Source: Lingula anatina
Lineage: Eukaryota > Animalia > Brachiopoda
NCBI GenBank assembly: GCA_051362555.1
Contig: CM120648.1
Coordinates: 11,900,587-11,964,586 of the forward strand
Length of the DNA: 64,000 nt
Reading direction: 5' to 3'
Shown piece after piece: positions 15,815-54,579 of this stretch. How positions within the stretch are numbered: position 1 is the first letter of the stretch; every line of letters begins with the position of its first letter. The notes under the pieces are model-generated. The model made no database searches. It was not told the origin of the DNA and saw nothing but the letters and a program-made list of their open reading frames with translations. The translations under genes were made by a program, and so were the position numbers.

Positions 15815-15853
<39 letters not shown>

Positions 15854-26275: not shown

Positions 26276-28324
26276 ATCCAAATCACTACTTTTTCATAAT
26301 TTTTTTTCTCTAATGGTTTAGGATTAACAAAAGTCAAATCAACTGTATTTTTTAACCAGTTTAAGTAAATTTTAGCATTTGGCTAAATTGGCAAGTGTTA
26401 ATGCTACATCAGGCAATTTAATGTGAGTTTAGCTGTTATTATTGTAACCATCCATTTAGTACATATATTGTGACCTTAGAATTTTTACTTTTGTCTTCTT
26501 TGTTTTATGGAAGTTCATTGTATATTTGCTCTTCTTTCAACAATGAAAGTACACTGCCATTTTGCTGTGTAAAATTTGAACACCAGAAATGTTTTGTTTT
26601 CAGGACTCCATGTGCGCACACTGCACCTCAACAAAGAGAGTACCTTCAAACCAAGACAGAGCAAAAGATATCCCAAAGATATTAAAAAGAGTGTTACCAG
26701 TGGTGCCTGCAAAACCAGTAAAGATAAACAAAACTATCGGGAAACAGAATCAGTACGCATGGACAGGGAGAAAGAAATTCACCTGGAACAATCAAGAGTG
26801 CTTGATACAAAAACTGATGAACTAATAACTCCTCAAACAAGGAGAAAAAGCAAAAGAATAGCATCACGGAAGATGACACAGAAAGACAAACATTACACAT
26901 CGCGGAACATGACACAGAGGGATGGACTTGGACATCATTTAACCAGGGATGTAAAAAAGAAAACTGCTCATCAAAACAAGAATGATAATCAGGATGTGTC
27001 TGATTTTGAATCATCAACAACGCCGGACAGATTTGAAGAAGAGTATTCTGGGATCTCAGTTTTACTGTATCCTGGGAAAGAAACTGCCACGCCCCCTTCA
27101 CACCCTGAGGATCCCAGTGTCCAAACCCAGGGACTCGGTGTTCTTCACCCTGGGGATGGAGGAGAACATCACACAGAGTCCAGCTCTGACTCAGGAGGGA
27201 CGGATCAGTTCTTTTTGAGGCTGCCAAACGGCAAACGCTTCCTCATCCAGAAAGAAATGGAAAGTACCGTTTTCAAGGAGGTGGACTCTTCTGCAGAGGA
27301 GGGAGAAAAAGAGAATGTGTTAACGAGTTCAATGGTGACCTGTAATATTTGTCAGAAGACTTACACGGGTATATATTATATGAATTTGCTTTTATAATAT
27401 AATAGTAAAGTATTTTATGACATTTTGTATATATTAAAGGGATAATAGCTCTTCGTATGAAATCTACATTTCACAATAAAAACATTGTGAATAACTCACA
27501 GAAATATAATATATTCTGTTTTACCACAAAAAACGGCAGTTATAGCTATTATTCTGATATCTGAGCTTGTCTTTAGACCACGTGACCTCCATTGATGGCC
27601 ATACTCTGTTAAAATCTCTTAAGAGATTTTAACAAAAAACCAAACTTTTTAGAAAAAAACCAGGGACTAACTTTGAATGTAAAAATGGATTCATTAACCA
27701 TTGGTAAGTATGGGAAAATTGTTGTTTACTCCAGGAAAATTCATTTTTTGGCCGAAAAGAAGAGTTACTATTCCTTTAATTTATTATCTTCTTATAACTT
27801 ATACACAATGATTGGCAATAATGAAAATACAAGACAGTGGGAATGATTGTTTTCATTATCAAATAGAATTACAAAATATCATATCTGATATCATGATTAC
27901 TCTTCTGGCATAGAACAAATTGATTCAATTTAGTTTGTGCCATAAACTAATTTTTTTATTTACAGCCAGGAGCATAAAGTCGCACAAATGCCGTGAGATC
28001 TGTGAACGCTGCGGTCGAGTCTTCCCACACATGAAAGCTCTTCGAAACCACCAGGCGTATGGTAATAACTGCGCTGACAGGGTGCTCCCCCTGGTGTGTG
28101 ACTTGTGCGGCTATGTTGCTAGCAATAGACACAGGTGGAAGGAACATGTCCAACAGCTGCATTCAGGTACGGTCAGGTTTACGGTAATGAATCTTATCTT
28201 TTCGATGGGCAAAAATTATCAAACTTTCAGATGCATAATTCTATAATAACAAAAATTAAACTTCTATATAATATTTTTTGCAGTTTTACTGCATAGAATA
28301 GAACTGTAGAGTAGTCTGCTTTTT

Positions 28325-34300: not shown

Positions 34301-37300
34301 CGCCACACAGACTTAACCAATAATATTATTGGAAAGTGTTACCCTTCAGGTCATCTTTCATCTCCGTGAATTTGGGGTCAATCGGTGCATTTTCACAGGA
34401 GTAGCGGCCATAAGATACCGAAACTGAAAACTGTCTCTAATTCGGGAACCGTTAATGCTAGAGACCCATTCTTTTTTGCATTTTGTAGAGCATGTAAAGC
34501 CCAACACTGGAGGTGGTCTCGGTTTTTTTGTATTCCATACGGTTTTCGAGTTACGCTGTATCAGAAAGTACATATTGGTGGTGAAAGGAAAATGTACGGA
34601 AGCCGACTGGTGCCATATGTAGAAAAAAAAATTATCTCGAAATTTCGAGATACTATTTTGAAATTTGAACAAAAAAAATTTTTATCTCGAAATTTCGAGA
34701 TAGCATTTTGAAATTTGAACAAAAAAAAAATTATCTCGAAATTTCGAGATAGCATTTTGATATTTGAGCAAAAAAATTTATCTCGAAATTTCGAGATAGT
34801 ATTTTGAAATTTGAACAAAAAAAATGCTATCTCAAAATTTCGAGATAATTTTTTTTTTCAACATATGGCACCAGTCGGCTTCCGTAAAAATGTGCAGTAC
34901 GGTAATGGATAATAAATTTTGAACTCCAGAAAAATAAAACATAATGCTTGGCAAAGCAGACAACTTGTGGTCAAAAATGACATTATTTTATCAAATTTAA
35001 ACTTCTGCAACTTCAGAGAACCTCCCATTTCAAGAACTTTGACCAAAATGACCTTTTCTTTATTTTAATTAATTTTTTCTGTAGGAAATTTATGGCACAT
35101 TATGGTAACTCCAAAATTATAACATTTAGTCCCTTATATCTCCAAAACTGGCAGAGATAGGTCCATAGTTACTATTGAAGTTGAATAGGAAGTCATATAC
35201 TGGCAATCTTACTGTGACCTTGACATTGACCTTTGACCTACTTTTCACCATGAACTGAACTTTGCAAATTTTGCTTCCCTTTTATCTCCAAAACTGGCAG
35301 AGATAGGTCCATAGTTACTATTGAAGTTGAATAGGAAGTCATATACTGGCAATCTTACTGTGACCTTGAAATTGACCTTTGACCTACTTATCACCATGAA
35401 CTGAACTTTGCAAATTTTGCTTCCCTTTTATCTCCAAAACTGGCAGAGATAGGTCCATAGTTACTATTGAACTTGAATAGGAAGTCATATACTGGCAATT
35501 TTACTGTGACCTTGAAATTGACCTTTGACCTACTTTTCACCTTGAACTGAACTTTGCAAAATTTGCTTCCCTTTTATCTCCAAAACTGGCAGAGATAGGT
35601 CCATAGTTACTATTGAACTTGCATAGGAAGTCATATACTGGCAATTTTACTGTGACCTTGAAATTGACCTTTGACCTTCTTTTCACCATGAACTGAACTT
35701 TGCAAATTTTGCTTCCCTTTTATCTCCAAAACTGGCAGAGATAGGTCCATAGTTACTATTGAAGTTGAATAGGAAGTCATATACTGGCAATCTAAATGTG
35801 ACCTTGAAATTGACCTTTGACCTACTTTTCACCATGAACTGAACTTTGCAAATTTTGCTTCCCTTTTATCTCCAAAACTGGCAGAGATAGGTCCATAGTT
35901 ACTATTGAAGTTGAATAGGAAGTCATATACTGGCAATCTTACTGTGACCTTGAAATTGACCTTTGACCTACTTATCACCATGAACTGAACTTTGCAAATT
36001 TTGCTTCCCTTTTATCTCCAAAACTGGCAGAGATAGGTCCATAGTTACTATTGAACTTGAATAGGAAGTCATATACTGGCAATTTTACTGTGACCTTGAA
36101 ATTGACCTTTGACCTACTTTTCACCTTGAACTGAACTTTGCAAAATTTGCTTCCCTTTTATCTCCAAAACTGGCAGAGATAGGTCCATAGTTACTATTGA
36201 ACTTGCATAGGAAGTCATATACTGGCAATTTTACTGTGACCTTGAAATTGACCTTTGACCTTCTTTTCACCATGAACTGAACTTTGCAAATTTTGCTTCC
36301 CTTTTATCTCCAAAACTGGCAGAGATAGGTCCATAGTTACTATTGAAGTTGAATAGGAAGTCATATACTGGCAATCTAAATGTGACCTTGAAATTGACCT
36401 TTGACCTACTTTTCACCATGAACTGAACTTTGCAAATTTTGCTTCCCTTTTATCTCCAAAACTGGCAGAGATAGGTCCATAGTTACTATTGAAGTTGAAT
36501 AGGAAGTCATATACTGGCAATCTTACTGTGACCTTGAAATTGACCTTTGACCTACTTTTCACCATGAACTGAACTTTGCAAATTTTGCTTCCCTTTTATC
36601 TCCAAAACTGGCAGAGATAGGTCCATAGTTACTATTGAAGTTGGATAGGAAGTCATATACTGGCAATTTACTGTGACCTTGAAATTGACCTTTGACCTAC
36701 CTTACAATGAACTTAACTTTGATTGCACCATTTTTAGTTATATATATTTTTTGCATATTTTGAAAATTCTTGTTGATTGCATTTTTACAGCTTGTCAAGC
36801 ACAAGACTGGTGGCTGCACCCCTTATTTTGTGTATGTGGGGGTCTATACGAATGCGCTTGCTCCAGCTGGTGGTACAATATTCGGAGGCGGTATCGCCTC
36901 TCTGATCCTCTAGTTTTAATTAAAATTTTATTAAGATATTGAATGAATACCTGTCCTTTTTGCCATTAAGATAAATGTCTCTGTATAAAAATGTTTTATG
37001 TTTTCATTGATGTAAGTTTTTCTCACTAAGACTGTTAATTGGTTAAAATCTCTTTGTGTCTTGAAAAAATAAACTCAAGAAGTTTAATTGCCTCAGGGAA
37101 GTAAGATCATTAACTGGGCAAACAGATTCTTAGAGTCCATTGTAAAACCAGCTGATGTCATTAATTCAAATATTAGTCTATAAACCCGACCTTTACTTTT
37201 TTTTTTACCACCACCAACCCTAGATTTCATTACTAAACTCTCTTATTTTAGCTACCGAGAGAAAAGTAAAATGTGAGATTTGCTCAAAAACGTGGCACCA

Positions 37301-38593
37301 TCCAGCGCAGCTCCGGACTCATATGAAAACCCACAGCGGTGAGTGGATGCATCTGGAACAGGCCTCCTAAAGGGATTGAGCATTTGCGAGCTTGAGCCTG
37401 AGATTTCTGAGCATGAATGCCCGTATTAACAACTCGAGCCACGTATTAATACCCTAGGTTCTAGATTTTGATATTGCCAGCTCGATCTTGATTTCATATA
37501 TAACCCAGATCAGCACTGTAACGTTAACACATGGAAAGGTATAGTTAATAAGCTAACTTTATAGTGCCCTGACACTCAGGGTACGAATTAAGTACCTGGA
37601 CATAAAATAAATAGCCATGAGCACAACTTTATAACACACAGATAGCTCTGACGACGTGTGCTTGTCTACTAATTTTACGTTGGGGCACTAAATTCTTGGC
37701 TCCTATTGTTCATTTCAGCATAGGTCCTCACAAATCTAAGGCTCGTGCTAGCATTCGCAATTATCGTTTATGTGGCTTGTGTTACTCTTTTAAGCTTTTA
37801 GTCACAGTAAGATATTTTTACATTGAGCAGAATACTAATATAGTCTGTTCCAATACACTTATACAGACTGAAATTATAATATTGTGGTTGTTACCAAAAG
37901 AATCACTTAATCAGAGTAAAAAAGCTGATATGTGCTGTATTAATTAGTAAACTTATCTTGAAAAGGGCTCACTCAACATTTTCTTTTAACAATAATTGTT
38001 TGAAGTAATAAAATAAGTGTTGTTTCATCACCATTTTCATTAAATATTTGATGTACAAAAGTTTTTGTCCTCTTTTTTTTGCAGGGACAAGAAACTACGA
38101 ATGTGAATTGTGTCTCAAAACTTTCACCACCAAGAGTAATCTGGACCAACACAGTAAGACTGCCCACGGCAACACTGTGTACAGCTGCGCCCTCTGCCAC
38201 TTCACCACAATACACAGAAACTCCATGAAAAGACACATGAAACTTGTGCATAAAATCCTGGAAGCTACTTTCATAGGAGAGCAGCCCCCTGGCGGTGTGG
38301 CTGTCACAACTCTAGATGTCGCCACTGAGGCTTACACTGATGATGACAATACCATAGGTGGCAGCACTGAGGTGTACACTGTTGCTGACTCAGCAAGTTG
38401 TGTTGATGCAACTGTAGATGGCAGCACAGAGGTGGTGTACACTGTGGAAAACACACCAGCAGAGGGAGACACCGTTGCAGTGGAGTCACCGACTGAGGGA
38501 GCACCATCTTTTGTAATCCTTGAAGAAACAGCTGCTGTAGAACCTGGACATATAGTTGTACAGACTGATTTAGAGCCCCATTTAACGCAGTGA
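25658..38593 (+). CDS. C2H2 zinc-finger protein, 6 coding exons, ~577 aa (one N-terminal finger, long linker, C-terminal finger cluster, acidic tail)
   Basis: Exons 25658-25736, 26604-27368, 27966-28166, 32824-32916, 37252-37338, 38085-38593; all introns are phase 1 GT-AG. Fingers: YVCGLCGHQFVHLLNL|GLHVRTLH (split by intron 1), LVCDLCGYVASNRHRWKEHVQQLH, FQCSVPDCNKSFKVKAALQHHIKYRH, VKCEICSKTWHHPAQLRTHMKTH, YECELCLKTFTTKSNLDQHSKTAH, YSCALCHFTTIHRNSMKRHMKLVH. Confidence 0.9.
27438..27775 (+). mobile_element. Kolobok-like MITE (~340 bp)
   Basis: TTAA TSDs, AGGGATAA/TATTCCT ends; nearly identical to 53683-54021. Confidence 0.8.
28321..32100 (-). mobile_element. Non-LTR retrotransposon (LINE), antisense in intron 3 of the zinc-finger gene
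   Basis: Intact APE-RT ORF, short 3'UTR, AATAAA directly followed by a poly(A) tail (poly-T 28321-28355 on +). The 5' boundary is uncertain and no TSD was found. Confidence 0.9.
28510..32073 (-). CDS. LINE ORF2: AP endonuclease + reverse transcriptase + C-terminal Cys/His knuckle (RTE-X/L2-group-like; clade unresolved)
   Basis: 1187 aa, uninterrupted. EN motifs NVHGL, LVETW, GDFNS, VDY, SDH; RT motifs FIDLKKAFD, GIRQGDSLSPMLF, LLYADDL, YLG; C-terminal RICKLC-x5-ENEIHFLLKC. Confidence 0.95.
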   Translation of the reverse strand: MIQLNLESLHRRKTVKILEALKHPIFRSMSQNLRIGMRNVHGLSEKLKDTYFVNTLSKYDIVGLVETWSSIRSNVSFPGSDYVHFHQIRNKKKMKGRPSGGIVVYYRKTLKQGITRVDSSSEDLLWVRLTREFFGFERDIFVCFVYIKPQNSTSGTIEQSTYDVLEKEIALYSQKGDIMLAGDFNSRTHNMKDYIENDEVNRVPLPNTYTCDKRVKIRNNLDHKINPFGYSLVNLCISAQLRILNGRKQGDTLGYYTCHSNNGYSVVDYMVVGSDLFKSIKNFCVNPIDYISDHCLLECILEMKTTQGKKTQQHETTNIKSKFIWDKDSKVAFEEVFISVGITQKIIDYECTSFANNESGVNDAVNEFTNIMESAANRALKRRRSHVNKKSKHKMKQLWFDQDCNILRKESIGLGKKLRRDPFNMALKTSYHRATKEYKKLVKYKKKQMKNNILNNLLHMENKNPKEFWEIIGQLKGQMKSDSSEYIESNTWYNYFKKLGESQNSPNDQNLHESLANLEKHLDQEQFKKLDYPITIKEIKSAIRALKIRKSCGEDTISNEMLKTSAAFIAKSLAKLFNLILGSGKFPSLWNKGMIKPLLKSGDPSNPQNYRGICINSCLGKLFTSILNTRLLSYIEECESLSKEQAGFRPTYRTSDNMFILNSLINQFINKNNKLYACFIDLKKAFDSVWIEGLFLKVLKQKIGGNFYRTIKHMYQTTELCVKIGQRRTNYFKTDIGIRQGDSLSPMLFNIYIDDMKNVFNSTCDPVKINANTTISHLLYADDLVILSKSAKGLQKSLDNLGDYCKKWKLTVNTNKTKVMIFSKSGKKPNMNFTIDHQTIEITHEYNYLGIKFKSNGSFKSALDDLKGKAMKAVFAVKQALQSTTHNMTQTYLKLFDILIKPILMYGCEIWGPSIASKSIKSLKYMNTLPFEVVQNNYCKYILGVRRNASNIAAKAELGRFPITHDIMGHATSYWQRFSEMPKQRLAKTMYEYETKQDTQVKNWSSEIKYITQNLMKTQTNTPSKAEVKKALESHYTLLFLKEIERENSILRTYRLFKTNYEREAYTTAPIPKHEMQNLAKFRTGAHDLEIQRGRYRKPKSIPPEERICKLCSDEVENEIHFLLKCPLLTKHREILKPDPTQTPEGQFKCIMQSNDLHVIKNVAHYITMCNKVRKNILNQPPPSQPK
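34595..34886. mobile_element. Foldback MITE with TACGGAAGCCGACTGGTGCCATATG TIRs and 6-bp TSD AAAATG (IS3EU-like ends)
   Basis: TSD at 34589-34594 and 34887-34892; internal ~57-bp units each contain the palindrome ATCTCGAAATTTCGAGAT. A truncated copy lies at 33778-33861. Confidence 0.75.
35137..36700. repeat. 146-bp satellite array, ~10.7 monomers, inside the HINE
   Basis: Monomer starts at 35137, 35283, 35429 and so on; very high identity. Confidence 0.95.
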
Positions 38594-40114: not shown

Positions 40115-40575
40115 TTGACATCACTCTCCATTGTCGGCACAACTCTCCACTGTCGACGCAACGTACTCCCCACTCAGGGGCGGATCCAGAGAAATTTTCT
40201 GACAGTCTTCCAAATTATTTTTGTTAATCCATCCTCCATTTTTGACCGTCTTCCGACACAAAATATTAGATACCCGTCAATGTAAACTTTAAAATCTGAC
40301 CGTCTTCCTGAAGACCCAGAAGACGGCCTAAATCCGCCCCTGCCACTGCCGGCACAACGTACTCTCCACTGTCGGCACAACTCTCCACTGTCGGCACAAC
40401 GTACTCTCCACTGTCGGCACAACGTACTCTCCGTTGTCGGCACAACTCTCCACTGTCGGCACAACGTACTCCCCACTGTCGGCACAACGTACTCTCCGTT
40501 GTCGGCACAACTCTCCACTGTCGGCACAACGTACTCCCCACTGTCGGCACAACGTACTCTCCACTGTTGACGCAA
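40115..40575. repeat. 20/24-bp minisatellite (actctccactgtcggcaca[acgt]) just upstream of channel-like gene A, interrupted by a MITE
   Basis: Tandem CpG-containing units ending ~35 bp before ATG 40610. Confidence 0.9.
40175..40342. mobile_element. MITE, CAGGGGCGGAT TIRs, 5-bp TSD CCACT
   Basis: TSD at 40170-40174 and 40343-40347; homologous to 18263-18426. Confidence 0.8.
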
Positions 40576-40609: not shown

Positions 40610-41566
40610 ATGTCAGGACAGATGAGTCGAGCAACAGACGACAGGCAACTACAAGCTCTGCTGCAGAATCTGGACTCCACGCTTACGCAGCTTCGAGGTT
40701 ACATCACAGACACAGGTGTTACTTTGTCAATAAGTGAACGACCAAGAAGAAGAAGAAAGGTAACGGTGATCTAGTGTTGTATTAATATTATCAGTTAAAG
40801 GAATAACTGTTCGTATGAGATCCACATCTTATAATAAATACGTCGATACCAACTCGTAGAAATAAGTAAATTCTTTTACCACCAAAACGGCGGCACTTAT
40901 GATTATTCTGGAAGCTGTGCTTTTCATTTGACTTTGTGGACCTTTATAACTGGCTTTACCTCCGTAATAATCTCTTAAGAATCCAATCTTTTTAGAAAAA
41001 ATGGACTAACTTCAAATGTCAGAGTGGATTCATCAACCACTCGAAAATACCGGGAAATAGTCTTTTACCCCAGGAAAATCCTTTTTTGCCAAAGCAAGCA
41101 CTACATATTCCTTTAAGTTTGATCCCGCAGTATGGTACTCAATGACCTCAGTGACAGTAGCCTATACTATGCATATTCCTTATATAAACAAGAACAGGGA
41201 AAGTAGTTAAAAACAAAAAACCAACGATCTGATTGACAGAAAAAGAGGTCAATAATTTGGATTCGAGTAAAATAAAGTAAAAGTTTCTCAATTATTAACT
41301 TGAGTTTCACAGAGAATCTAAAGTGCCACCTCTCTTTTCCTTTTGAGCTCACAACTGTGAAAGGAAAAAAAGGTTGATTTCACTTATGATTTAATATTAA
41401 ATTTAAATATTAACTCTCAGTGGCGAAAATATCCAACCCTAGTATGTCACCTATGGTACTAGTTCATTTATTTTGGATCAGTTGTTCATACATAAATATA
41501 AGACAAATATGGAAAAATAAATTTATGTAGTCGACTATCCACTGTCTAAAATGCGTTCATTTTTAA

Positions 41567-41618
<52 letters not shown>

Positions 41619-41794
41619 CATTATTATTTATTTATTTATTTATAAATGTATTTATTTGTAAAAGAGGCCGCTTGTCTGGGTCATAGTAAATTACTCATAA
41701 TTTCGTTCTAGATATGTCCGACGTGGTGGCCGTGTAAGTGCAAGCTACCCCAGACAATATACAAGTATATGTTGCTTCACACGGTTATATTACA

Positions 41795-41836
<42 letters not shown>

Positions 41837-44800
41837 TAGACTGCAACTGGCTGAAGCCAGTGGCGGAGGATTCCCCTGCAAAATAGGTGTGGAAATGCTC
41901 TTACAAGGTCATGTGAAGGTCATGGGTTAAATTTTACCCAATATTCTGAAAGAGCATGTGCGAATTGGGGGGGGGGGGGGTCAACAAAACATTACTCTAG
42001 CCCATTGCAATATTTCTCAATGAAATAGCCAAATGACCTTGAAAATGAGGGTCAAGGTCAAATTTGACATTTTATTTGGGGGTTTTGGGTATATGTTTGG
42101 GGTAGTTTACTATAGCATGCTATGACCAAAAACCAGTGTTTCATGGAGAAACTGCCAAACTCAAGATTTCTGCAATGTCATAAATATTTAAAAATCTATA
42201 TTAAAAAAAGTAATTAGGCAGTCGGTACCAAAGTACGGCTAACCTTAGATAAATATATAGGGCATTATTTGCCACTATGATTAGGGCTCTGGGCCTTCCG
42301 GTTTTTGAGATCTCGGAAACAAACCTTTTTTGAGCCCGTTTAGCCATTAGCGACCTTGACCTTGACCTACTTGCATAAAAGTAGGTCATTATCTGTGGAT
42401 TTGTCTCAGTATCATTGATCATAAGGCCCTTAGCCTTAGGGCTTATACTTTAGGCCTAATGGCAATTTCAAATTTCATAAAATTTGCCTTTAAAAGACCC
42501 TGTGACCTTGAAAAGTAGGTCAAGGTCACTGAAACTGGGTCTGTGGCATATTCTTGCCATGGGCTACCTATGATAATTATTTCAGATTTTTTGCGAAAAA
42601 AAACGCGCGGAAAGAATAATAATAATAAAAACTATAATACTACCAAAAACAATAGTATTCCCCTATGGGGAATCCTAATAATAATAATAACGTCATATTC
42701 CGTTTAAATCATTATCAGCTTTATGAATTTATTTTTCTGCTCAAGCTCAAAATTTGTCCAGGTAAAAAACTGCTTTCCTTACAAATGTAAAAATAATAAT
42801 AAAATAAAATAATTAATAGAAACAATTGCTACTTAAAGTTCAGTAACATTCAACAAATCAGAAAACGTTTGATTATGCAGGTAGCAAACGTGTTGGCGCT
42901 TGTATTTATGGATAGCACCCAAGACGAGGCTCAACCTGAAGTTATTATTGACGTGGTAAGTTGAATGTTAAACAAACTAGCACACTGTATTTCCACAATT
43001 AGCGCATTGTGTAATCAGAACTAGCACATTGTATTCCCACATCAAATGCATTGTAAATTCTTACGTATTGTATTGTCACAACTAGCACATTGTACGTCAC
43101 AACTAGCACATTGTATTGTCACAACTACCACATTGTATCTCCACATCTAGCGCATTGTAAGAACTTACACATTGTATTGTCACAACTAGCACATTGTATG
43201 TCACAACTAGCACATTGTATTGTCACAACTAGTACATTGTATTTCACAACTAGCACATTGTATGTCACAACTAGCACATTGCATTGCCACAGTTAAAAAA
43301 CAATGTTTACCAAATCAACCACAATGTTATTTTCACAACAGGCACCTTAATTGTATTGTGATAACTTAGGAACCGTTCACATGGAAAGTCTATTTTCTAA
43401 AAATCTATTTTCTATTCGCGGTGTCTTGTGATCACGGTCTGTGCCCTGAAAACCCCGTGGCGTAACTACTGGCAGCGCAGGGAGTAACTGGCTGGCACTG
43501 CCAGTAATTACGCCGCGGGGTATTCAGGGCACAGACCGTGATCACAAGATACCGCGAATAGAAAATAGATTTTTAGAAAATATGTGAATGGTCCCTTATA
43601 CATCGTATTGTCACAACTAACACACTGATGTCCAAACAAACACCGGGGTTTGTTGCAGTGAACACAATTTGTTGTCAGGCCTAATACTGTTCTTATTTTA
43701 TTTCAGAGTGCAATAGTGATGATTACAATACAATTGCTGAACTTGGTCATCGTGGTCTTCTCTACCGGTGAGTTGCCATGTTCTAAAATTAATCATCAGT
43801 TTTTTTTATTGGAATTGTACCGTTATACAGTGTATGTAATAACTGGGAGTTTCGTATTGGAATTGTACCGTTATACAGTGTATGTAATAATTGGGAGTTT
43901 CGTATTGGAATTGTACCGTTATACAGTGTATGTAATAATTAGGAGTTTCGTATTGGAATTGTACCGTTATACAGTGTATGTAATAATTGGGAGTTTCGTA
44001 TTGGAATTGTACCGTTATACAGTGTATGTAAAAATATGGAAGAAACACGAACAGACTGGCTTATAAACGTTTTTGTTAATTTTGTAAAAACATCCAAGAA
44101 GAAATATTCTGATCTTAGTGCACCGCGTTCACTGAGACAAATTAGCCCTATGTCAAGGTTGGTCTTCTAAATAATGGAACTTTTTTATTTGCAACATATT
44201 ATAAAAGTACTTAAAATATGAGGAAATTTTCAAAAAGCATCTTCGAGTATGTAATGAGCCTCTCCCTCTCTCCTTTCTACTGTCAGGTCTGAGGTTGAAT
44301 TGCTCTCTTTTGAAGAGAGGGGGAGGGTAAAGTATAAATATACCATCATCAACAAAGCATATATACTTAACCTCAAACACGACACGCAGTACATAGCGAT
44401 TCAGTTTAATTAACCAAAAATATGATATTTCCAGTGAAGCTGTCTCGGCAGATGTACTGGCACAACATCAGCAAATGGTTCTTTCTTCAAAATTACATGG
44501 CGACCGTCCTTCTCTTCAGCGGAATTTACACCATGACTCACAGAATTCACGTAAGTTAAGGACCATTACCACAGATTTTTGGATCGATCTATCTCCCTTG
44601 GGAGTCTCACTAAATTGCTATCAACGTAACCGGCTTAAATGTCTATCACGCCTAGTAAACTTGTTAGGGGGTAATTATCGAGTTAGACTGATCCAGATGG
44701 ATCTATATAGGCATGAGAACCCAGTCTTATTGTCGTCAGTTCGCTTAATTGTCTTTGCTTTGGTTCTCAATCAGTATAAAACCTAGAAAATTCTCTTTTG

Positions 44801-45244
44801 GTAAATTATGTATGGGTTAGTATTACTCCCTTTTTACTTCGAACGGTACGTTACCAAAATGGCTGTTTTAGGTCTGTTAACGGGATTCTCTTGCGTTATA
44901 GCCAGCGTATTAAGTTGCTTATCTCTGAAATATTTCTTGAATAGACCAGGGCCGTAGCCTCCGGGGGGGCAGGGGGGGCAGCTGCCCCCCCTGGGATTTA
45001 GAATTTTCCACGCTGGTAGGGGGACACCCCCTCCCCCCTCGGGGGATAAGCCCCCTCGTGTCCGCTTACTGCCCCCCCTGGCATTTTGCTCAGGCTACGG
45101 CCCTGTAGACTACATCTGTTGACTTTTTTGCAGAGACAAGGATGGCACTCCATCAATTTAGGGAACAATACAAACCAGGTGTTTTTACTTTACTTCGACA
45201 TGATGACGCTGTCCATATCAACAGCAACTCTGTGTGGTACATTA

Positions 45245-45307
<63 letters not shown>

Positions 45308-46010
45308 TATTTATCTATTTTTTTTTTTTTTTTTTTTTTTTTTGCATTCGATTTCTTACATTTTTAATAATGAAAATTAAGTTGGAAGATATGTATTTTT
45401 TTATAATTTTGGGAAATTTAAGTCTTGACAGAGCAAAATAAAAAAGTGCATTTGCGTAACCAGTAAGGGGAGGGGGAAATCATCTTTACATATCACATTA
45501 AGAATGGATTATCTATTTACAGGTGCTAGTAATATTTCCCCAGTAGATTGGTACAACTCTTTGATTCTCAGCTTACAGGTAGGTTTGAATCACTGGTTTA
45601 TATGGTGTATATAAACCATATAAACCATATAAACCAGTGATTTATATGGTGTATATGCACACTGGCTATTGCAATGGTAGGGGCGGATCCAGGATTTTTT
45701 GAAGGGGGATCCGTGGATTATGAAATCAAATGAACTTTTCTTTCAAGATTACTTCATAGGATCCATTTATATCATTTAAATTTTAGCCAATACGGTGTCT
45801 CTATTCTAGATGCTGCTGAGCTACATGTACTTTGCCTCGATAATGTCCATTGTCACGGAGGCCGGCGATCACGCGAACCAGGAGGGAGGACAAAATGGAC
45901 CTCAGCGCCAGGAGGCCGAGGACAAGGACGACCTCCGGGTGGTCGTTATTAACGAGAGGGACAGATTAATTAATGGGGGTGACAGTGACATTGGCTACCA
46001 GCGAGTGTGA
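40610..46010 (+). CDS. Channel-like gene A: 4-TM protein with K+-channel-like pore module and non-canonical filter (STATLCGASNI), 8 exons, 281 aa
   Basis: Exons 40610-40759, 41712-41795, 42881-42955, 43707-43767, 44435-44550, 45134-45236, 45523-45578, 45810-46010 (846 nt, GT-AG, in frame). Exon-by-exon homology with paralogue B supports the model. Confidence 0.88.
40799..41112 (+). mobile_element. Kolobok-like MITE, diverged copy
   Basis: TTAA-AGGAATA...TATTCCT-TTAA; homology to the 27438 copy. Confidence 0.7.
41834..42678 (-). mobile_element. Second HINE-type element (different family), inserted in a (TAA)n tract
   Basis: On the minus strand: 5' subTIR AGGATTCCCC with adjacent inverted copy; 3' GGGGAATCCT, then hairpin ACTGGCT-tc-AGCCAGT and CTAGTT. 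Interior rich in TGACCTTGA. Confidence 0.75.
42975..43290. repeat. 21-23-bp minisatellite (cacaactagcacattgtat[t]gt) directly after exon 3 donor of gene A
   Basis: ~14 degenerate tandem units. Confidence 0.85.
43369..43595. mobile_element. Palindromic MITE with TTA TSD (PIF/Harbinger-like)
   Basis: ~100-bp arms (ttttctaaaaatctattttctattcgcgg...ccgcgaatagaaaatagatttttagaaaa); TTA at 43366-43368 and 43596-43598. Confidence 0.75.
43807..44030. repeat. 48-bp minisatellite, ~4.7 copies, after exon 4 donor of gene A
   Basis: Unit tattggaattgtaccgttatacagtgtatgtaataattgggagtttcg. Confidence 0.9.
44947..45105. mobile_element. MITE, CAGGGCCGTAGCC TIRs, 5-bp TSD TAGAC
   Basis: TSD at 44942-44946 and 45106-45110; G/C-run-rich interior. 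Confidence 0.8.
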
Positions 46011-47876
46011 CGCACGCTGGATCGAATCCGAGAAACGGTGGGCGCGTTTATAGTTAACTTAGGTCGACTCATCCTGGTTCCTGGGGTTGTTTAACAGCAG
46101 AAATTTGAAGCCGTGAAAGTTTTCACTTCAACACTCGATTTAAAAAATTATTCATACAGATAATTATTGGTTACGTAATCCAATTGAATGGAATGTCGAA
46201 TGCGTTTTGTGGAAATGAAAAAGTGACTTCCATAAATGCGCCCCTCATCTTCGTTACCAAAAACGATCATACGTTTGTTCCTGATTTGCAAGCTGCATAG
46301 ACTGGAGTATGAGAGACTTGGGCAGAAAACCAAATTATCGCCAATATTGATGCAATCAAAGATTAACTTTGTGATACAATGCATTGTTAGAATTGTCGTT
46401 TATCGCTTTGTAAACAGTGCACTGAAAAAGTAGGTGGATTATCACATTGCGAAACGCGTTAATCCACATACTAGTACGTGTGTATACCTGACAATTCTGT
46501 CCTTGGGCATGGGGACCACAATCTCTTGAAAAATTTGACAGTGAAAGACCCCCCCCCCCCCTACAAGAAATAGAACGATATATTTTTTCGAAACGTTTTA
46601 TTAGACTTTAGAAATAAATAAGAAAAAAAATACAAAAATCGAAAAAAGCACTGAACTGAAATACTGTTTTCACACACAAACTAACTCATCTTACTCACTT
46701 GTTCGCTCACTTGCAAACGTTCGTTTAAAATAATATAGTAACCTTCTGGAAGCTTTTACAGTTCGTTCTAAGTGCGACCAAATGCAAACGAGGAGGCACT
46801 GCTGGAGGAGGCCCGTCATTCAGTTAATCCGACTACATACAGCGAGAGTTCCCGCGGAATTGGATCGATCTTTCTAGTACGATAGTTTCATTGGAAACGC
46901 ATCCCTAGTCACTGTAATAAATTCTAATTCTAGTAATAGGTTTTAAAACCTTGCTTGTAAAATACGACTGGATGTAAAACCAATGCAAAATTTTCAAACA
47001 TTTATTCAAAGGTAAGCATGCGCGGTGTATGAGAATAGAAACCAGTCGTATGTATGGTGTACAACAATAGAAATACAATTGATAAGTGTGACAAATACAC
47101 CAGCAGTTTGAGCGCGTGTGAGTTTGCCACACTGCAGTGACTCACGTCATGGCTGACTTCTGGCTATTATTGTAATACTTTTCTAATCAATATACCACCA
47201 CTGAAAATTGTGAACAAAACGCTAAATGAGATCGTGCCATAAAAAGTGTCAAACAGTGTGTGTTGACAGTACGGTACTACCTTCGTAAGTGTTTTCCCAC
47301 TTCGTGTTTTCTGTTGGACTCTCTTCCTAAACACTGGTTTTCAGATGACACTCGAAACTTTTTACTATCAAGTAATGCCTCTCACGATGCTGGAGACGGT
47401 AGAAGGATGCTGACAGTAGAGAAGTGAGTTTACAGGGTCTTATTCAACTCAGGGAACTTTTCAATGATGCATGAATTATTGTGAACTGTTGTCAAACTGT
47501 TGGCCGCCAAGTGTTTGGACATTGTATAACTTAGGTGGTGTCGTTTCTGCCTGAGCGTCTCAAGGACATATCTAGAGCGCGACGCACTCTTTCTTGTATG
47601 AGCTCAGCTGTAATCACGCAACACATGCGCCATCAAGTCGTCGCACTAGCTGAATCGAGAAAGTAAGGTTTTTGTGCTTTTCCTTTTGTCTTCAGGGGTG
47701 ATAAAAACTCGACGGGAGATGCTGAACTTCAATACCGGAAGAAATGAAGATATAGCTGAGCCCTTATGCACAGTGTGCGCCGGTTAAACCTAGAAAGAAA
47801 AATTACCCAAACGAGGCTGCCAAAGGGCGCCTGCATTCAAGGCAGGGCGGTGGATGTTTTAGAGTAAGTTTCCAAG

Positions 47877-50800
47877 ATGGAGAGTCGGCCAGACCGGGGG
47901 ATGTCACCACTCGGAGAACCACAGCCTTCCGACGAATATGTCACTCTGGATGGTAAAGAAGGCAAAGGGTGAGAGAAGGGTTGTTTTTTTTATGAGAATT
48001 TGTGTCTCACAGAGTGAAGTTAACAGTTGCCTCCGTGAATTAAGTAATATGGTACCCTTGCCTCAGTTTTCGGCCTAACAGCGGTAAGGGTACCGTGAGC
48101 ATTTAAGGCCAAAAACTAGGCAAATCATTCCCCATACCACAGAATGTTCTTAGTCACAGCCGACCGGTGCCTCTTCAATATCTGTTTGCAAATTTTGGTT
48201 GCCTTATATTACGTTTGATAAAGTGGCCACAGGGCCTTTATAAGCAGATGTATGTTTGATTTTTGTTTCCCCTTTTTAAGAAGTAAAATGATAACAATAT
48301 AGGCTCCATACCAGGGAAGATATTAAATCTGTCATATGATTGTTCTTTACAGTTTACTTAACTATAAACCTTTAAATAGCTACCTTAGGGTGCATACACA
48401 ACAGATGATCCTCGGACTAGTCCGCGGACCAAATATGGCCGACCCCACTTGAAAGCTATGCCGCATAATGGTCTCCCCATCTACCACACGCGCCATTCCT
48501 GCAAGTCCTAGCAATCAAAGCTAAATTTACACCTCTCCGAGATTGATACTGTGATAAGGAAATATACTTATGTATAATATGTACCAAATACATTACATAT
48601 TACTGTACAAAGTTATAAATATTGCAATTCAGTTGAAACCTAAGTGATTACCTGCAGAGCGTTCGAGAGAGATGGGAGAGGGGAGGGGGTTGGAGAGAGA
48701 GAGAGAGGGGAGGGAGATTGCATTAGATTGCATTATAGGAGATAATGTGGAATGACAATACAGTGGACAATGTTTTAACAATAAACAGTCCAAAATTTGA
48801 TTTAAAAAATCGCGGATGCAGTCGTTAGACCTAAAATCGGCAACCGCAATCCCAAATCTGCAGCTCCAACTCACAAACCGCAATCTATTTCACCCATAGA
48901 GCCCTGTTCCAGCAGTCTTTAATGAAAAAAAGGCCGAGTTTTGACTGAACTCCTTGCGTGAAGCAGATCCCATCTCATCTTGTTGACGTCACAGATTACC
49001 CACCTGGGGGAAGATATGGTCTATATCATATAGACAAGGAATGTTATCACGACGTTATTTATCACTACTGAGCAGATTGGGAGAGAGTTTTGGCCATGAC
49101 CCAAACCTGAAGAGGCATGTCAAGTCCTTGAAGTACTGCAGTATTATTGCTACCTCGGCTGCGACCTAATTTTACCCGCATCAAGAGATATAATTTATAC
49201 ATCAGTATAACAAGAGAACGTGATTTGCGCACAATGATGTTTTGAAGTATGAGTCATACGCACGCGATTATTTTTTTGTCACCTTTCTGTATAGTAAAAG
49301 CTGAGACGTATCCTGATGCTGCTTGAGACATGTACGCGTATCTTTCATAGGATTGATGTTTACATGGTAAGTTCGGAAGTTAATAATTATACATGTACAT
49401 TGATTTGTGGTGTGGCGAAAGCGCCGAAGAAGACAGTGGGATAGATGAAACCGAACTTAAGCCCAGTCAAGATCTTTATCAGTATTTTGTCATAGCCCGA
49501 ACTGTCATATATCAGTACTGCTGCCTAAGGTGCTCGATCGTAACGCTGCCGGTTGTGGTAGTCTTTGTGAGTGTTGGACAAGATACACAGGGCGCCAGGT
49601 AGGCCTAGGGACCATTCCCAGACCCTATCGTACTAACTGTGGATCGATTTATCTCCAAGGCTGAATTGCAATCAACTTAAGCCGCCCAGATGATTGTCTA
49701 CTGCAGCTGTTAGGGGGTAATTAATTATCGTTTAGCAGCTTCAGTAGATGTGCCAGACATTTAAGCTGAAAGTAATTTAGGGAGAAACCCATTGTAGATG
49801 GATCGATCCTGTTAGATCGATCTAGGTATGGGAACCCAGTCCTACATGTACCTCTGTATATTAAAGACGCCTGCCTCGGCACAACATGTAGAAGATCCGG
49901 GTCATATCGACACTGAAAAAGGCTTACACGCCTTTGTCACTCAGCGCTGACAACTAAATCAGTAGTGAATAAACGTATCGCCAGATGACGTCATTTTAAT
50001 CTATACCAGACTGGGTTTATCTGGTTGCTCTTAGATCCCAATCCCATATAAACACCGTCGTTCTACGTCAATCCAACTCTGCGGGGACTCTCCCTGTGTG
50101 CAATCAGCTTAATTGAATGACATGCCTACGGAGAGTTGGATCCATGTACATGTACGTAGATCGATTGTGTCTATGGGAATGGGCCCTAACGGTCACGTTT
50201 TCGTAATCAACATAGGCTTGCCGGCAAAAAGAAAGTGAAAGTGCGTACATGTACCCCTGTGCATTTGTAAACAGGATGAGCAATTTTCTTGTTTTCGTTT
50301 TGTCCCTTTTAGCATCAAGGACATGCCGCTACAGGTACAATCCGATCTCTCAACCAGACAGTTAGAGACACTCCTGCAGAACCTGGATAGGACATCTGCG
50401 CATGTGCGCGCCTTCTTGGCCCCCACCAATGGTCACGTGAGGCAAGAGGAGCCACGGAGGAGGCGGAAGAGGAAGGTGGGTGTTTAAGTTCACAGGAAAA
50501 AATAATTTATCCGAATTGGGCATGTGATTTAGGTATGGAAATTTGTTATCAATGTTGACAATATCTGTTTTGAGACCGTACTATTTTAAATTAAACAGCA
50601 TAATTTGGAGTCGCATTTTTCTACAGAAGGCCCAAATTTTGTTACAATTGTTGGGTGATCATCTCAAAAATTATTGGTACCGTACAATTTATTCATCTCA
50701 TTCATCATTCCATTTACAGACCCCACATTAACAACGTTTTCTGAGATGTTCACCAAAAAGCTATTGGACCATTTGGGAAATAAAGCCTCAGATAATCGGT

Positions 50801-51224
50801 AAACTTAAAATGTTAAACATTCTATGTTTGTTTCAGATATGTCCGGCTTGGTGGCCGTGCAAGTGTAAGCTGCCCAAAACGCTGTATAAGTACATGCTGG
50901 TTTTCACGTTCATTTTACAGGTAACGTACGTAACTGATCTTCTTGTAGAAATTGAAGTAGGATTGGAAACGCTGTATACATTTTTCCTTTGTTGGATCCT
51001 AAATTTAATATGAGGTGTTTATATTAATAAAAGCGGTATACAAAGTAAACGATCACAAATATATCGGAAGAACTTGTATTTTCGTTACTGACATATTTTC
51101 ATTATTGTTAATTTTTATTGGTTTTCCAGTTGTTCAACATAGTGGCTCTCACAGTGCTGGACGCCATCCCCAAGTCTGACCAATCACGAATAGAGACCAT
51201 TGTTGTGGTTTGTACAAACTCATT

Positions 51225-51267
<43 letters not shown>

Positions 51268-54200
51268 TACCCAGACATGCGCTGGCAAGCAATGTCTTAT
51301 CTTCAACTTGTTTCGAAAGAAACGTTATTGAACGGATTATTCTGTACTTGCCTGACTTACATCACGTACCTCAAACTATTTTACACCCCCAAAGTTGTGG
51401 CTAGTTTACTGCTTCTTAAATACCATATAGTATAAAAAAACATTTCGAACTTTGAAACAAATATTTTTGCAGTCAATTTCAACTAACGCGGAATAAACTT
51501 AATTATATCTTTCAGAGCGCCATCATCATGATTACGTTGCATTTGGTGAACTTGGTCATAGTGATCATGTCTACAAGTAAGTTTATCAGGATTCTTAGGG
51601 CTAATTCCCAATAAAACTATCGTTCTACGCACATCGATCCAACTCAAACTCAGTGGCAATAAACACAAATTGTATAAGTCTTTGTCATCACTGTCAAAGC
51701 GATTTTCTCTCACTTCGCCTGTGGAACTCTTCGTAAACTTTAAGAAAGTGCATTCTAGTGTGCTACACGTACATACGGAATGCTTTGTTTTGCCAAGCGC
51801 AGTTGATAACATTTCAGTTTGGTATTTTCTTATACACTTACAAACATGACCTTCCCAAAACCCCAAGAGGCCCATAAGGGATGAAAGTACCAAAGAACAA
51901 ATTTTCAGTGTTTATCTTTTAACGTGTGCATTTGCGTGAAGTGTCATACAGAATATACATAAAGCCCTGCAGTACGTAATACACATACAGTAATATGCAT
52001 TAATCTCTGTTCTTTTCCGTTTCAGTCAAGCTGTCCCGCCAAGTATACTGGCATAATGTTAGCAAGACGTTCTTCCTGCAGAACTACTTGGCCACCGTGT
52101 TACTCTTCAGCGGCATCTATAGCATGACCTACAGGATTGACGTAGGTTGCATGAACTCTTGCTGTGAACCACTTCTTAAAGGGATAACAACTGTTCATTT
52201 TGGCTAAAATATGAATGATGAATTTCCATGGGGTAAACGACAATTTTCCATACTTACCAATGGTTAATAAATCCGTTCCGACATTTAAGGTTTTTACAAA
52301 TTATCTCTAAAAAAATCTCATACGAAGAGTTGTTATCCCTTTAACCAGTACTTTGTCCGTTGAAATTGGTTTTCTGGGTTTGGTATATCTCTAATATACA
52401 GTTTTATTTTATATCAGAATGTGGATTTTCTCACCAAAAATAATTCCTCCCGTATTTGTTTCTTCAATACAGCTTTTTCCATGACAACCAAAGAATTTTG
52501 TCATAAAGCAGCTGGCCACTTAAATTTTTTTGCAAACGGAATCTGCCGCTTCACGAAGCTGTCTCTAGTCTTCTCTTCCACAATTCCTCAAAATTCCATC
52601 GAAATTTGCCGTAACATTTTGAGAGCCAAAAGCAACAGTGTTTTTGCATGCATACACACTTGAATAAAACTTTGATGTTACTAAGTTCCCGTTAGTTTAA
52701 AGATGCATACAAAGTCAATTTTTTTGTCACAAAAACCAACCAAATGCCAGCATATAGTTTCAAGTAGTATAACTAAGAGAATTACCAAAAGGCATTGTTT
52801 AATTTTACCCGAAAATGATGTTTGAACAGATTTTTCTGCTGGCATTCTAAGCTGTATGTCAATGGGGCAGGAAAGTAGGTCACGGAAGTAGGTTAAATTT
52901 ACAACCATAAATTTAAAGAAAGGAGCAGTTTAAAGGTCTTTTATGGCTGACCGAGTGATCTATTCAGTTTATCCCTTGGCATGTCGAATTTATTTGAGTC
53001 ATATAAGAATCTAGTAGAAGTGGTTTACATGTGTTACTCAGAATCCACACTCCACCGATGCTCGGTTCGTATGTACCTTTAAACGTCCTTTCAGTCACCT
53101 TTATCCATTGTTTGCCTTGTAATTTTTTATTTGCTTGTGAACATTGAAACTCAAAATAAAATACATTATCAACTAATATTTATATGTCACAAAATGTCTT
53201 GTTTAATTTTGTCATATTTTGCAGAACAACGGCTGGGCGTCTGTGAGTTTGAATCTGAATGATGAGCCCAAAATGGGATTTTTGTTATACTTTGAAATGA
53301 TGACGCTGTCCATATCCACGGCTACACTTTGTGGTAAGATTCCATGGCGGTTCCGAATAGATAAAAATCTAAATTCTGAATGTGAATAAAAATTTTCATT
53401 TTGCTGTTATAAGATTTTTATTTTGAAGCCGTACTGCCCAGGGCTACAGGGAGTATTGCCGTTTAGTGTTACTTATTTATGATGATTATCCTCCTCTATT
53501 TGATTTCAGTGTGTATTTGAATATATTTGTGATTAAGTATTATTTTTTAAGGACAAATTTGGAAATTATTTTAGAAATCAAAATTTCAAAGTCGGATCTC
53601 TTTACTTTTCAGGCGCCAGTACTATTACACCAAAACATTGGTACAACAGCCTTATTCTCTGTGTTCAAGTAAGTGGTATTAAAGGGATAATAACTCTTTG
53701 TATGAGGTCTATATTTCACAATAAAAACATTGTGAATAACTCACAGAAATATAAAATATTTTGTTTTACGACAACAACAGCAGTTATATAGCTATTATTC
53801 TGATATCTGAGCTTGTCTTCAGACCACGTGACCTCCATTGATGGCTATACTCTGTTATAATCTCTTAAGAGATTTTAACAAAAAACCAAACTTTTTAGAA
53901 AAAAAACAGGGACTAACTTTGAATGTAAAAATGAATTCATTAACCATTGGTAAGTATGGGAAAATTGTTGTTTGTTCCAGGAAAATTCATTTTTTGGCCA
54001 AAACGAAGAGTTATTATCCCTTTAAATCTTTTCTTTCATGAATTCTTTAATAAGGAGTTCACTAGAAACACTTAACATATCGTTATTTACAGTGGAAGTT
54101 TTTAACGATTTACCACTGTATACAGTAACAATGCTTTAATGGCCCTTCTTGGTCGATCAGTCTCTATGGACAGCGCAAAATAATTTTGATAGTTTCCTTG

Positions 54201-54579
54201 AATAATGCTATTAATATTGCAATTTAAACTTCTATACTTTCATTATAAAAACATTATCATTACAAGTAATTTCAATGAAAGCAGTCCCTTACATGTGGCA
54301 TTTTATTCTTTCAAATTTTAAGTGTCCAAATTTGCGTCAGTTCACAACCGCTGTCTCACCTAGCATATTCTGTTCACTTTCTTTCATCTATGTTTACATC
54401 TGTTAACTTTGTAGATGCTTCTCAGCTACATGTATTTTGCCTCCTTGATGTCCATGGGGTCAGAGTCAGGCGACCAGGCACCCCCTGCTCCCCCCTCACG
54501 AGAAGAAGAGGACGAGGAAAGCGGCAGAAGGTTGACGCACAGGGCAGAAAATGGCGGCAGTGAGTATCAGAGAATATGA
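47877..54579 (+). CDS. Channel-like gene B (paralogue of A): filter STATLCGASTI; 273 aa from ATG 50323, or 307 aa with upstream exon 47877-47968
   Basis: Exons [47877-47968], 50313(50323)-50475, 50837-50920, 51130-51207, 51516-51576, 52026-52141, 53225-53333, 53613-53668, 54415-54579. Same intron positions and phases as gene A. The upstream exon has a strong Kozak context (aagATGG) and a phase-2 donor matching acceptor 50311-50312, but is less certain. Confidence 0.86.
49613..49842. mobile_element. Dispersed palindromic repeat, inverted relative to 38603-38850
   Basis: cattcccagaccctatcgtactaactgtgga is the reverse complement of ~38820-38851. Confidence 0.6.
52180..52340 (-). mobile_element. 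Kolobok-like MITE, short copy
   Basis: TTAA TSDs, AGGGATAACAAC/GTTGTTATCCCT TIRs. Confidence 0.75.
53683..54021 (+). mobile_element. Kolobok-like MITE (~340 bp)
   Basis: TTAA TSDs; AGGGATAATAACTC/GAGTTATTATCCCT TIRs; inserted 14 nt after an exon donor. Confidence 0.85.

Follow-up and report, generated by a model that had tools for sequence, protein, structure and literature searches.

The stretch of Lingula anatina DNA considered here (contig CM120648.1 of assembly GCA_051362555.1, positions 11,900,587 to 11,964,586; all 64,000 nucleotides are called the window below) carries two genes, paralogue A and paralogue B, which lie in tandem on the plus strand and encode putative channel proteins whose selectivity filter reads T-L-C-G-A-S. 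Coordinates are collected in Table 1. The motifs quoted in an earlier interpretation made from the letters of this DNA (the sequence-only reading) were all found in place, and its account of two 8-exon paralogues holds with respect to exon structure and intron phases, which are 0,0,0,1,0,1,0 in A and B alike, with GT..AG borders in 14 of 14 introns. What it had missed is an upstream coding exon of B, which is in frame, agrees with the N-terminus of the annotated isoform X1 (P0008) and is joined to the core by 29 spliced reads in RNA run X1 (47968 to 50313); B has nine coding exons once it is counted. For the probable alternative first exon at 49356-49366 no supporting joint was present among the RNA joints listed. 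Neither coding frame contains a stop or a frameshift, and in both genes the filter motif is interrupted by intron 6.

The two proteins are 59% identical over 268 aligned residues, with a non-synonymous divergence (dN) of 0.35, a synonymous divergence (dS) of 2.0 and a dN/dS of ~0.17, which marks purifying selection. Identity amounts to 79% in the pore segment (dN 0.15, dS 1.19) and to ~40% at the termini. A protein search with exon 5 of A as query returned a single protein, the annotated L. anatina XP_013388784.1 (LOC106157612 isoform X2, P0001), with which B agrees at 270 of 273 residues; A itself was absent from these results. When the window was translated in six frames and searched with the family profile, all exons of A and B but one took the top 15 places; the sixteenth, exon 3 of A (E 1.9), lay below three stray matches, and no third paralogue appeared in the window.

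Four RNA runs were aligned to both genes and four further runs to A alone; 6-30% of each run was read, and the runs had been chosen by species label with tissues not specified. Among the 15 joints listed for the four runs on both genes, six of the seven core introns of B are represented and intron 3 is not; the joint reads of intron 5 pass through an allelic difference of six letters where exon 6 begins. B is spliced in runs X1, X7 and X9, with 15, 20 and 12 reads, respectively, across the intron-6 junction inside the filter, while run X4 shows zero depth on its first, second and last exon bins. The first mate of the X1 joint reads lies on the minus strand throughout, which fits plus-strand RNA in a usual stranded library. 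The listing covered 40 of 237 differences; of the ten single-base changes that it places in exons of B, nine are synonymous. The RNA check of the exons was thus largely successful for B, whereas no spliced read of A was found among the joints listed.

Some further observations concern the two genes. A tandem repeat with 23/42/65-bp periods (40343-40567) stops ~40 bases 5' of the A start codon and could affect the promoter or 5' end of A. Just before the first transmembrane (TM) helix, a polybasic run followed by three Cys residues is encoded in A (40745-40759 with 41712-41741) and in B (50458-50475 with 50837-50866); this possible lipid-binding or palmitoylation site, proposed from its residues, is not kept in most relatives. 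Intron 1 of A (40795-41116) and intron 7 of B (53679-54025) have a 350-base element in common at 67% identity, whose B copy shows very high RNA depth and loose ends and which is likely a dispersed repeat.

Fold and predicted assembly

B alone gave nothing useful against Pfam or against PDB sequences. A profile built exclusively from 41 relatives with a G-Y-G filter, which had originally been gathered with a TLCG profile, matches B with E 2.4e-43 and A with E 6.5e-42 over ~250 residues comprising the N-terminal helix, TM1, TM2 and the pore. The joint profile aligns with KcsA at E 1.6e-7, the filter being matched without a gap. The Pfam check that the sequence-only reading had proposed was only indirectly fruitful: PF07885 (E ≤ 0.01) is matched neither by B nor by any of the 50 TLCG rows of the 91-row alignment, but by 40 of the 41 GYG rows, and the NCBIfam models matched by the GYG relatives are K+ channel models only.

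The AlphaFold2 model of B (mean predicted local distance difference test score, pLDDT, 81.5) predicts an N-terminal helix, TM1, a long TM2, an outer helix, a pore helix, a re-entrant loop and an inner helix, followed by a short, unstructured C-tail; the pore adopts a helix-loop-helix form, in agreement with the four TM helices plus pore loop suggested before. Because two designed helical bundles topped the structure search with the full-length model, the pore was modelled alone from 54 TLCG-clade rows (104 residues, pLDDT 89). Ion channels or channel complexes filled 50 of the 50 listed rows of its structural neighbours (48,161 chains), the best being AKT1 (2.5 Å over 102 of the 104 residues); NaK, as NaK D66A, has Z 11.4 and 2.1 Å over 82 residues, and the top ten superpose at 2.1-3.1 Å. 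Three results speak against the fold assignment: TLCG-only profiles match solved channels weakly (7 rows gave E 0.03 and 54 rows E 0.47), the Z score of 12.2 for AKT1 does not reach the value of ~13 below which the tool advises caution with helical proteins, and neither the full-length nor the pore model had a Foldseek match at E ≤ 0.001. Considering the GYG-only profile, the KcsA alignment and the neighbours of the pore model, we conclude that A and B are almost certainly channel-fold homologues.

Four copies of B residues 62-245 yielded a tetramer score of 0.51, compared to 0.00 for the best control (pLDDT 66), and the runs agree in at least 82% of contacts. In this model the pore helix packs on the inner helix of the neighbouring subunit, and L206 and G208 meet across subunits at the axis. 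In the calibration of the score, which was based on two copies, 21 of 30 microbial pairs passed the mark, as did 17 of 29 eukaryotic pairs (animals 7 of 16; one of seven where an older solved relative is lacking); none of the 23 microbial and 30 eukaryotic single chains did. The family alignment was not fed into the tetramer model, and the passing score may stem from a resemblance to channel tetramers of known structure. Judging from the models, proteins of the A/B family very probably form tetramers.

Each of A and B has one pore loop, and the two helices preceding the pore lack the Arg/Lys repeat of voltage-gated 6-TM channels (Kv, KCNH, HCN, TRP), so that gating by voltage in the classical manner is unlikely. 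In relatives, Ion_trans matches below threshold reach over TM1-TM2, which may, as far as the sequences suggest, be a remnant of an S1-S4 domain. The placement outside the 2TM, 4TM-2P and 6TM classes, put forward in the sequence-only reading, is borne out by these features and by the comparison with Kir and K2P channels given below.

Family membership and evolutionary history

Among 1.84 billion representatives, a profile of seven sequences matched 461 clusters at E ≤ 0.001 (247 at E ≤ 1e-10), and the sequences of the best 150 of the 461 were retrieved. Together with earlier matches and both window proteins, isoforms and near-copies included, they gave 175 gap-free pore domains, of which 75 carry an LCG-type, 95 a GYG/GFG-type and 5 another filter. 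The named LCG-type members come from Dysidea, Oscarella, Hydra, Nematostella, Convolutriloba, Ixodes, Tachypleus (TQCG), Elysia, Babylonia, Lingula and Branchiostoma, all of which we take to be animals, ranging from sponges to amphioxus. The named GYG/GFG members are Microstomoeca roanoka, Didymoeca costata, Salpingoeca macrocollata, Mantamonas plastica and Cochliopodium minus, presumably three choanoflagellates, one CRuMs protist and one amoebozoan. Most matches are unnamed, and to call the entire TLCG clade animal is an extrapolation from its named members; vertebrates, insects and nematodes do not occur among these, no dedicated search having been made. As to prokaryotic relatives, a genome scan gave 32 pattern matches with none confirmed and a phage search gave none, both searches being insensitive; bacterial Ion_trans_2 clusters of the ESM Atlas scored 0.79-0.83 and are leads only.

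DUF1345 (PF07077) is matched by five GYG relatives (E ≤ 0.01) along almost all of its 173 model positions, which take in the extra TM helices and the pore; the best match (E 1.9e-7) has 31.4 bits against a gathering cut-off of 31.8, and all five lie below the cut-off. B does not match DUF1345. A description of the A/B family was not found in the full-text literature, as judged from titles and abstract openings, with subscription journals thinly covered, and the family is apparently an undescribed, unnamed 4-TM one-pore class. In the available part of a choanoflagellate channel survey (PMC11287247) the channels are Shaker-like only. Animal pore-loop channels are thought to be well catalogued, and surveys lean on mammalian templates and Pfam models: according to the accessible text of PMC12749960, 623 genomes including Lingula were screened with mammalian-template models in combination with a filter by top human match, by Pfam or by both. 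Since none of the 50 TLCG rows matches a Pfam channel model, a standard survey of this type would likely miss the animal TLCG members. The accessible supplement of that study contains no accession of the family, a blank that is uninformative since other protein files were used.

For the trees, 74 of 176 domains were picked to span the groups of a first, 166-row tree, which omitted nine isoforms or near-copies; the filter columns were removed and no outgroup was included. The single-domain TLCG set forms one clade, with a support in the Shimodaira-Hasegawa-like approximate likelihood ratio test (SH-aLRT) of 98 under LG+G4 and of 97 when a mixture model was used and 17 columns around the filter were left out. 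Its grouping with a choanoflagellate-containing clade is moderately supported (90 and 87). A and B pair as sisters (SH-aLRT 100) and are thus, by these trees, a duplicate pair of the Lingula lineage among the sampled rows. We took GYG as the ancestral state because solved outgroup channels carry it.

Two pore domains occur in 27 matches, in which the whole 4-TM unit is repeated. In five two-repeat proteins both repeats bear TLCG-like filters, each repeat nested among GYG repeats, and one of these proteins stems from a marine protist transcriptome set. A single origin of all TLCG filters was rejected in the approximately unbiased (AU) test with p 0.0017 and p 2e-5, values that are optimistic, the groups having been named after the first tree and long branches being present. 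A single TLCG origin within the two-repeat lineage for both repeats is compatible with the data (AU p 0.295), and consequently we claim two origins and not three. On the evidence of these trees, the TLCG filter appears to have arisen at least twice, and the rewrite is family-wide and ancient rather than particular to the A/B pair.

Several relatives deserve separate mention. The two-repeat relatives with TLCG-like filters are P0086, P0112, P0119, P0133, P0142 and P0108, the last of which has in its second repeat a mixed V-L-C-G-Y-G-D filter, like an intermediate. P0104, P0128, P0147 and P0160 carry a different rewrite, M-S-[A/T]-G-[IL]-[SA], which is one residue shorter in the alignment. The GYG-type P0053 of the choanoflagellate-containing clade also matches SH2 (E 3.2e-6), so a phosphotyrosine-linked channel is possible from its domains. 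P0098 (Tachypleus) is annotated as fused to Sec62 and P0011 (Branchiostoma belcheri) to an adhesion G-protein-coupled receptor (GPCR); both fusions may be merged gene models.

The rewritten filter and its possible consequences

From pore helix to inner helix, residues T205-L206-C207-G208-A209-S210-T211 of B align without a gap with KcsA T74 to D80 (offset 131; T75-V76-G77-Y78-G79 numbered after PMC3895005 and D80 after PMC8943062). The KcsA positions T75, V76, G77, Y78 and G79 are therefore taken by Leu, Cys, Gly, Ala and Ser, respectively. The sequence-only reading had set this register one residue off, an error which hid the key change of Thr75 to Leu; the gapless alignment pairs T-L-C-G-A-S-x with T-T-V-G-Y-G-D. 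In the 50 TLCG-clade proteins T is found 49 times, L 50, C 49 and G 50 times, followed by A (21) or S (20), then S (19) or A (19) and a free position at 80. The 41 GYG relatives have T (24) or S (12) at position 75, then G (41), Y (22) or F (15), G (41) and D (40). Accordingly, the K+ signature T-x-G-[YF]-G, with Thr at filter site S4, is absent from the TLCG clade, and G-[YF]-G is present in 37 of the 41 relatives. The equivalents of T74, G77 and P83 are retained. Decay or pseudogene status of the family was ruled out by the intact frames, the dN/dS, the fixed filter and the synonymous RNA differences, so that the earlier view of a conserved rewrite is supported.

High K+ selectivity requires four contiguous sites, and fewer sites make NaK and MthK variants non-selective; in particular, removal of site 4 (T63A in NaK2K, T59A in MthK) results in non-selective channels, as described in the accessible part of PMC3082925. 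The second filter Gly is stated to be 99.6% conserved in K+ channels (bioRxiv 2025.01.10.630794, available text). Because the equivalents of T75, Y78, G79 and D80 are lost together, K+ selectivity is unlikely, and the loss of T75, Y78 and G79 likely removes it, as far as can be deduced from the alignment. Mechanistically, site S4 would lose its hydroxyls through the exchange of Thr75 for Leu, and the change of Tyr78-Gly79 to Ala/Ser together with the loss of Asp80 would do away with the outer sites and their supporting bonds. What remains would be a short carbonyl filter (Cys, Gly) over a hydrophobic Leu ring, with four subunits placed round the axis and L206 and G208 at the center, as in the predicted tetramer. 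For a conducting pore that is not K+-selective we see about as much reason to expect it as to doubt it.

With respect to the location of the proteins, A and B both end in a YxxPhi motif although their tails have diverged. (G)YXXphi and [DE]XXXL[LI] are consensus endosomal/lysosomal sorting signals which route mucolipin-1, LAMPs and CD63, as given in the available text of PMC5297682. Of the 50 TLCG rows, the 39 whose tails are complete served for the motif counts, which were compared with shuffled sequences. Upstream of the N-terminal helix, [DE]xxxL[LI] occurs in 12 of 39 (shuffled mean 2.9, maximum 9) and [DE]xxPL[LI] in 7 of 39 (mean 0.1); C-tail YxxPhi was found in 16 (mean 6.5) and YG[AST]+[ILMVT] in 11 of 39 (mean 0.2). 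Three control motifs were not enriched in these rows, nor was YxxPhi in the N-tail (19 of 42 versus 15.4). A first dileucine count of 20 of 42 was discarded as confounded by the conserved N-terminal helix, and the motif was recounted upstream of it. The dileucine motif also occurs in GYG relatives (7 of 26, mean 1.2). The enrichment of dileucine and tyrosine motifs tilts the balance slightly towards an endolysosomal location.

Taken together, A and B are lineage-specific duplicates in an ancient eukaryotic family, with an animal filter T-L-C-G-[AS]-[SA]-x, and would form homotetramers that likely conduct cations without K+ selectivity, maybe in endosomes or lysosomes; this explanation as a whole stands, in our estimation, at an even chance. 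Several observations weigh against it. Replacement of the S4 Thr by Ala abolished selectivity in MthK but not in Shaker (PMC4485025, available part). Small residues exchange freely at the two positions after the Gly, and position 80 is under no constraint, a pattern that a structural or plugged pore would show as well; ions could be stopped by the four Leu side chains at the cavity entrance. As regards location, both sorting motifs are missing from 17 of the 39 TLCG-clade proteins, A and B are without the dileucine motif, the counted rows are related by descent and not independent, and YxxPhi also serves endocytosis and sorting at the trans-Golgi network. Finally, A is intact, and its transcription is without support in the runs examined.

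The main alternative, itself rather unlikely, accepts the tetrameric fold and supposes that Leu ring and short filter are shut to hydrated metal ions; the proteins would then be sensors or scaffolds without conduction, or their pore would let through nothing but protons, water or small neutral solutes. Leu at the Thr75 position in 50 of 50 proteins, its contact across subunits in the tetramer model, the lack of a fixed acidic residue in the filter and Ser at the KcsA G99 hinge position in 44 of 50 are in line with it. However, the hinge Ser is also present in 25 of the 41 GYG relatives, and T-x-C-G including the central Gly is kept from sponges to amphioxus and recurs in a separate lineage, suggesting a geometry selected for permeation. 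Furthermore, a hydrophobic residue stands two positions ahead of the filter Gly in non-selective channels of the TRP type.

The possibility that B is the working gene and A a recently silenced copy, to which we assign a low probability, concerns A alone and leaves the family finding unaffected. No A joint was among those listed in the eight runs, the depth on exons 1, 3, 4 and 7 is 0 in four of the four runs aligned to A alone, A was not returned by protein searches, and its terminal branch is longer (0.33 versus 0.21 for B). On the other hand, a 282-codon frame and 14 canonical splice sites are intact at a dS of ~2, and trace depth occurs on the last exon of A (0.57 in X1, 1.21 in X8). Moreover, each run was read in part, from unspecified tissues, and 24 and 28 joint rows lie beyond those listed.

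A weakly K+-selective leak through backbone carbonyls would agree with the unchanged loop length without indel, the retained G77 and T74 equivalents and the tolerance of Shaker; in view of the combined loss of the four equivalents, the requirement for four contiguous sites and the near-invariant second Gly we judge it improbable. An A/B heterotetramer of obligate or preferred partners, as proposed in the sequence-only reading from the tandem, same-strand arrangement of two intact, constrained genes with 79% identical pores, is very improbable, given that the duplication is confined to the Lingula lineage among the sampled rows, A and B carry the same filter, B is predicted to tetramerise by itself, and the A last-exon bin has a depth of 0.57, 0 and 0 in X1, X7 and X9, where B is spliced.

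Returning to cation-conducting homotetramers without K+ selectivity, a wider hypothesis would be that an ancestral 4-TM K+ channel, whose GYG is kept to this day in choanoflagellates, was turned into a T-L-C-G selectivity class at the origin of animals and independently in two-repeat eukaryotes, giving an unrecognised invertebrate endolysosomal channel, spread from sponges to lancelets, with a permeation unlike that of K+, NaK/CNG and TRP channels; in this full form it is tentative and doubtful. The family as such would add a 4-TM one-pore class, with members among sponges, cnidarians, acoels, chelicerates, molluscs and brachiopods as well as amphioxus. It also provides a natural experiment on selectivity, close single-celled relatives keeping the K+ signature on the same scaffold and TLCG having apparently arisen at least twice.

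Beyond the two paralogues, the window contains a peptide-type GPCR gene, repeats and further exons (Table 1). The frame of a long interspersed nuclear element (LINE) type probably sits within an intron of the C2H2 zinc-finger exons.

Table 1 Features of the window, counted from its first nucleotide; helices are given in residues of the B model.
Feature	Position	Strand	Remarks
Paralogue A, 8 coding exons, 281 aa	40610..46010	+	frame intact, GT..AG introns
A exons 1-4	40610-40759, 41712-41795, 42881-42955, 43707-43767	+	
A exons 5-8	44435-44550, 45134-45236, 45523-45578, 45810-46010	+	
A filter codons	45227..45533	+	T-L-C 45227-45235, Gly split by intron 6, A-S-N 45525-45533
A C-terminal G-Y-Q-R-V-stop	45993..46010	+	fits (G)YXXphi sorting consensus
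B upstream coding exon, long isoform, ATG 47877, 30 codons, contains Y-V-T-L	47877..47968	+	RNA joint to 50313
B alternative first coding exon, short isoform, probable	49356..49366	+	yields the N-terminal residues of isoform X2 as annotated (P0001)
Paralogue B core, 8 exons; aligned Met 50323, 273 aa from there	50313..54579	+	
B core exons 1-4	50313-50475, 50837-50920, 51130-51207, 51516-51576	+	
B core exons 5-8	52026-52141, 53225-53333, 53613-53668, 54415-54579	+	
B filter codons	53324..53623	+	T-L-C 53324-53332, Gly split by intron 6, A-S-T 53615-53623
B C-terminal E-Y-Q-R-I-stop	54562..54579	+	fits YXXphi sorting consensus
B model helices	18-39, 72-98, 103-140, 146-170, 188-204, loop, 217-243		AlphaFold2
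Rhodopsin-family peptide-type GPCR, single frame, 412 aa	57810-59048	-	7tm_1 E 1.8e-22, 7TM_GPCR_Srw E 2.4e-20
LINE-type frame, 1204 aa uninterrupted, endonuclease and reverse transcriptase	28510-32124	-	RVT_1 E 7.8e-36
C2H2 zinc-finger exons	27914-28246 and 38012-38593	+	
Probable DNAJC11-like gene exons	about 15800-21600	+	PF22774, weak, E 0.005
146-bp satellite	35130-36721		10.9 copies, 96% matches
Near-exact local duplication, ~350 bases, at 33.5 kb and 34.4 kb	33541-34711		

Comparison with known channels

With KcsA-type pores (PF07885; PDB 3pjs, 1k4c; AKT1, hERG, Kir) the A/B family shares the outer helix, pore helix, re-entrant loop and inner helix. In contrast to KcsA, the TLCG proteins possess two additional N-terminal TM helices and an N-terminal helix, and T75, V76, Y78, G79 and D80 are changed to L, C, A/S, S/A and a free position. 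K2P channels have two pore loops per chain instead of the one in A and B, and Kir channels combine 2 TM helices with a cytoplasmic beta-sandwich, compared to the four TM helices and short, unstructured C-tail of B. For the uncharacterised DUF1345 (PF07077), a 4-TM one-pore layout in common with the GYG relatives is suggested.

The plant CASTOR/POLLUX/DMI1 channels have four TM helices, one pore, a non-GYG filter and large RCK gating domains. In comparison, the A/B family lacks the RCK domain and has a different filter; no search returned these channels. TRPML1 and other endolysosomal channels have dileucine and tyrosine sorting motifs and a non-K+ filter in common with the family, a functional likeness that would hold if the location suggested above is correct; no sequence link between them and the A/B family was found, and TRPML channels are 6-TM proteins with a large luminal domain.

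NaK, CNG and HCN channels show the same fold with an altered or shortened filter (HCN neighbours of the pore model, Z 10.6-10.9), and in comparison with CNG and HCN the A/B family is devoid of the cyclic-nucleotide-binding domain and of the voltage sensor. In NaK and CNG the T-(V/I)-G is retained and the alterations are confined to the residues behind it, whereas in the TLCG clade the S4 Thr itself is replaced by Leu.

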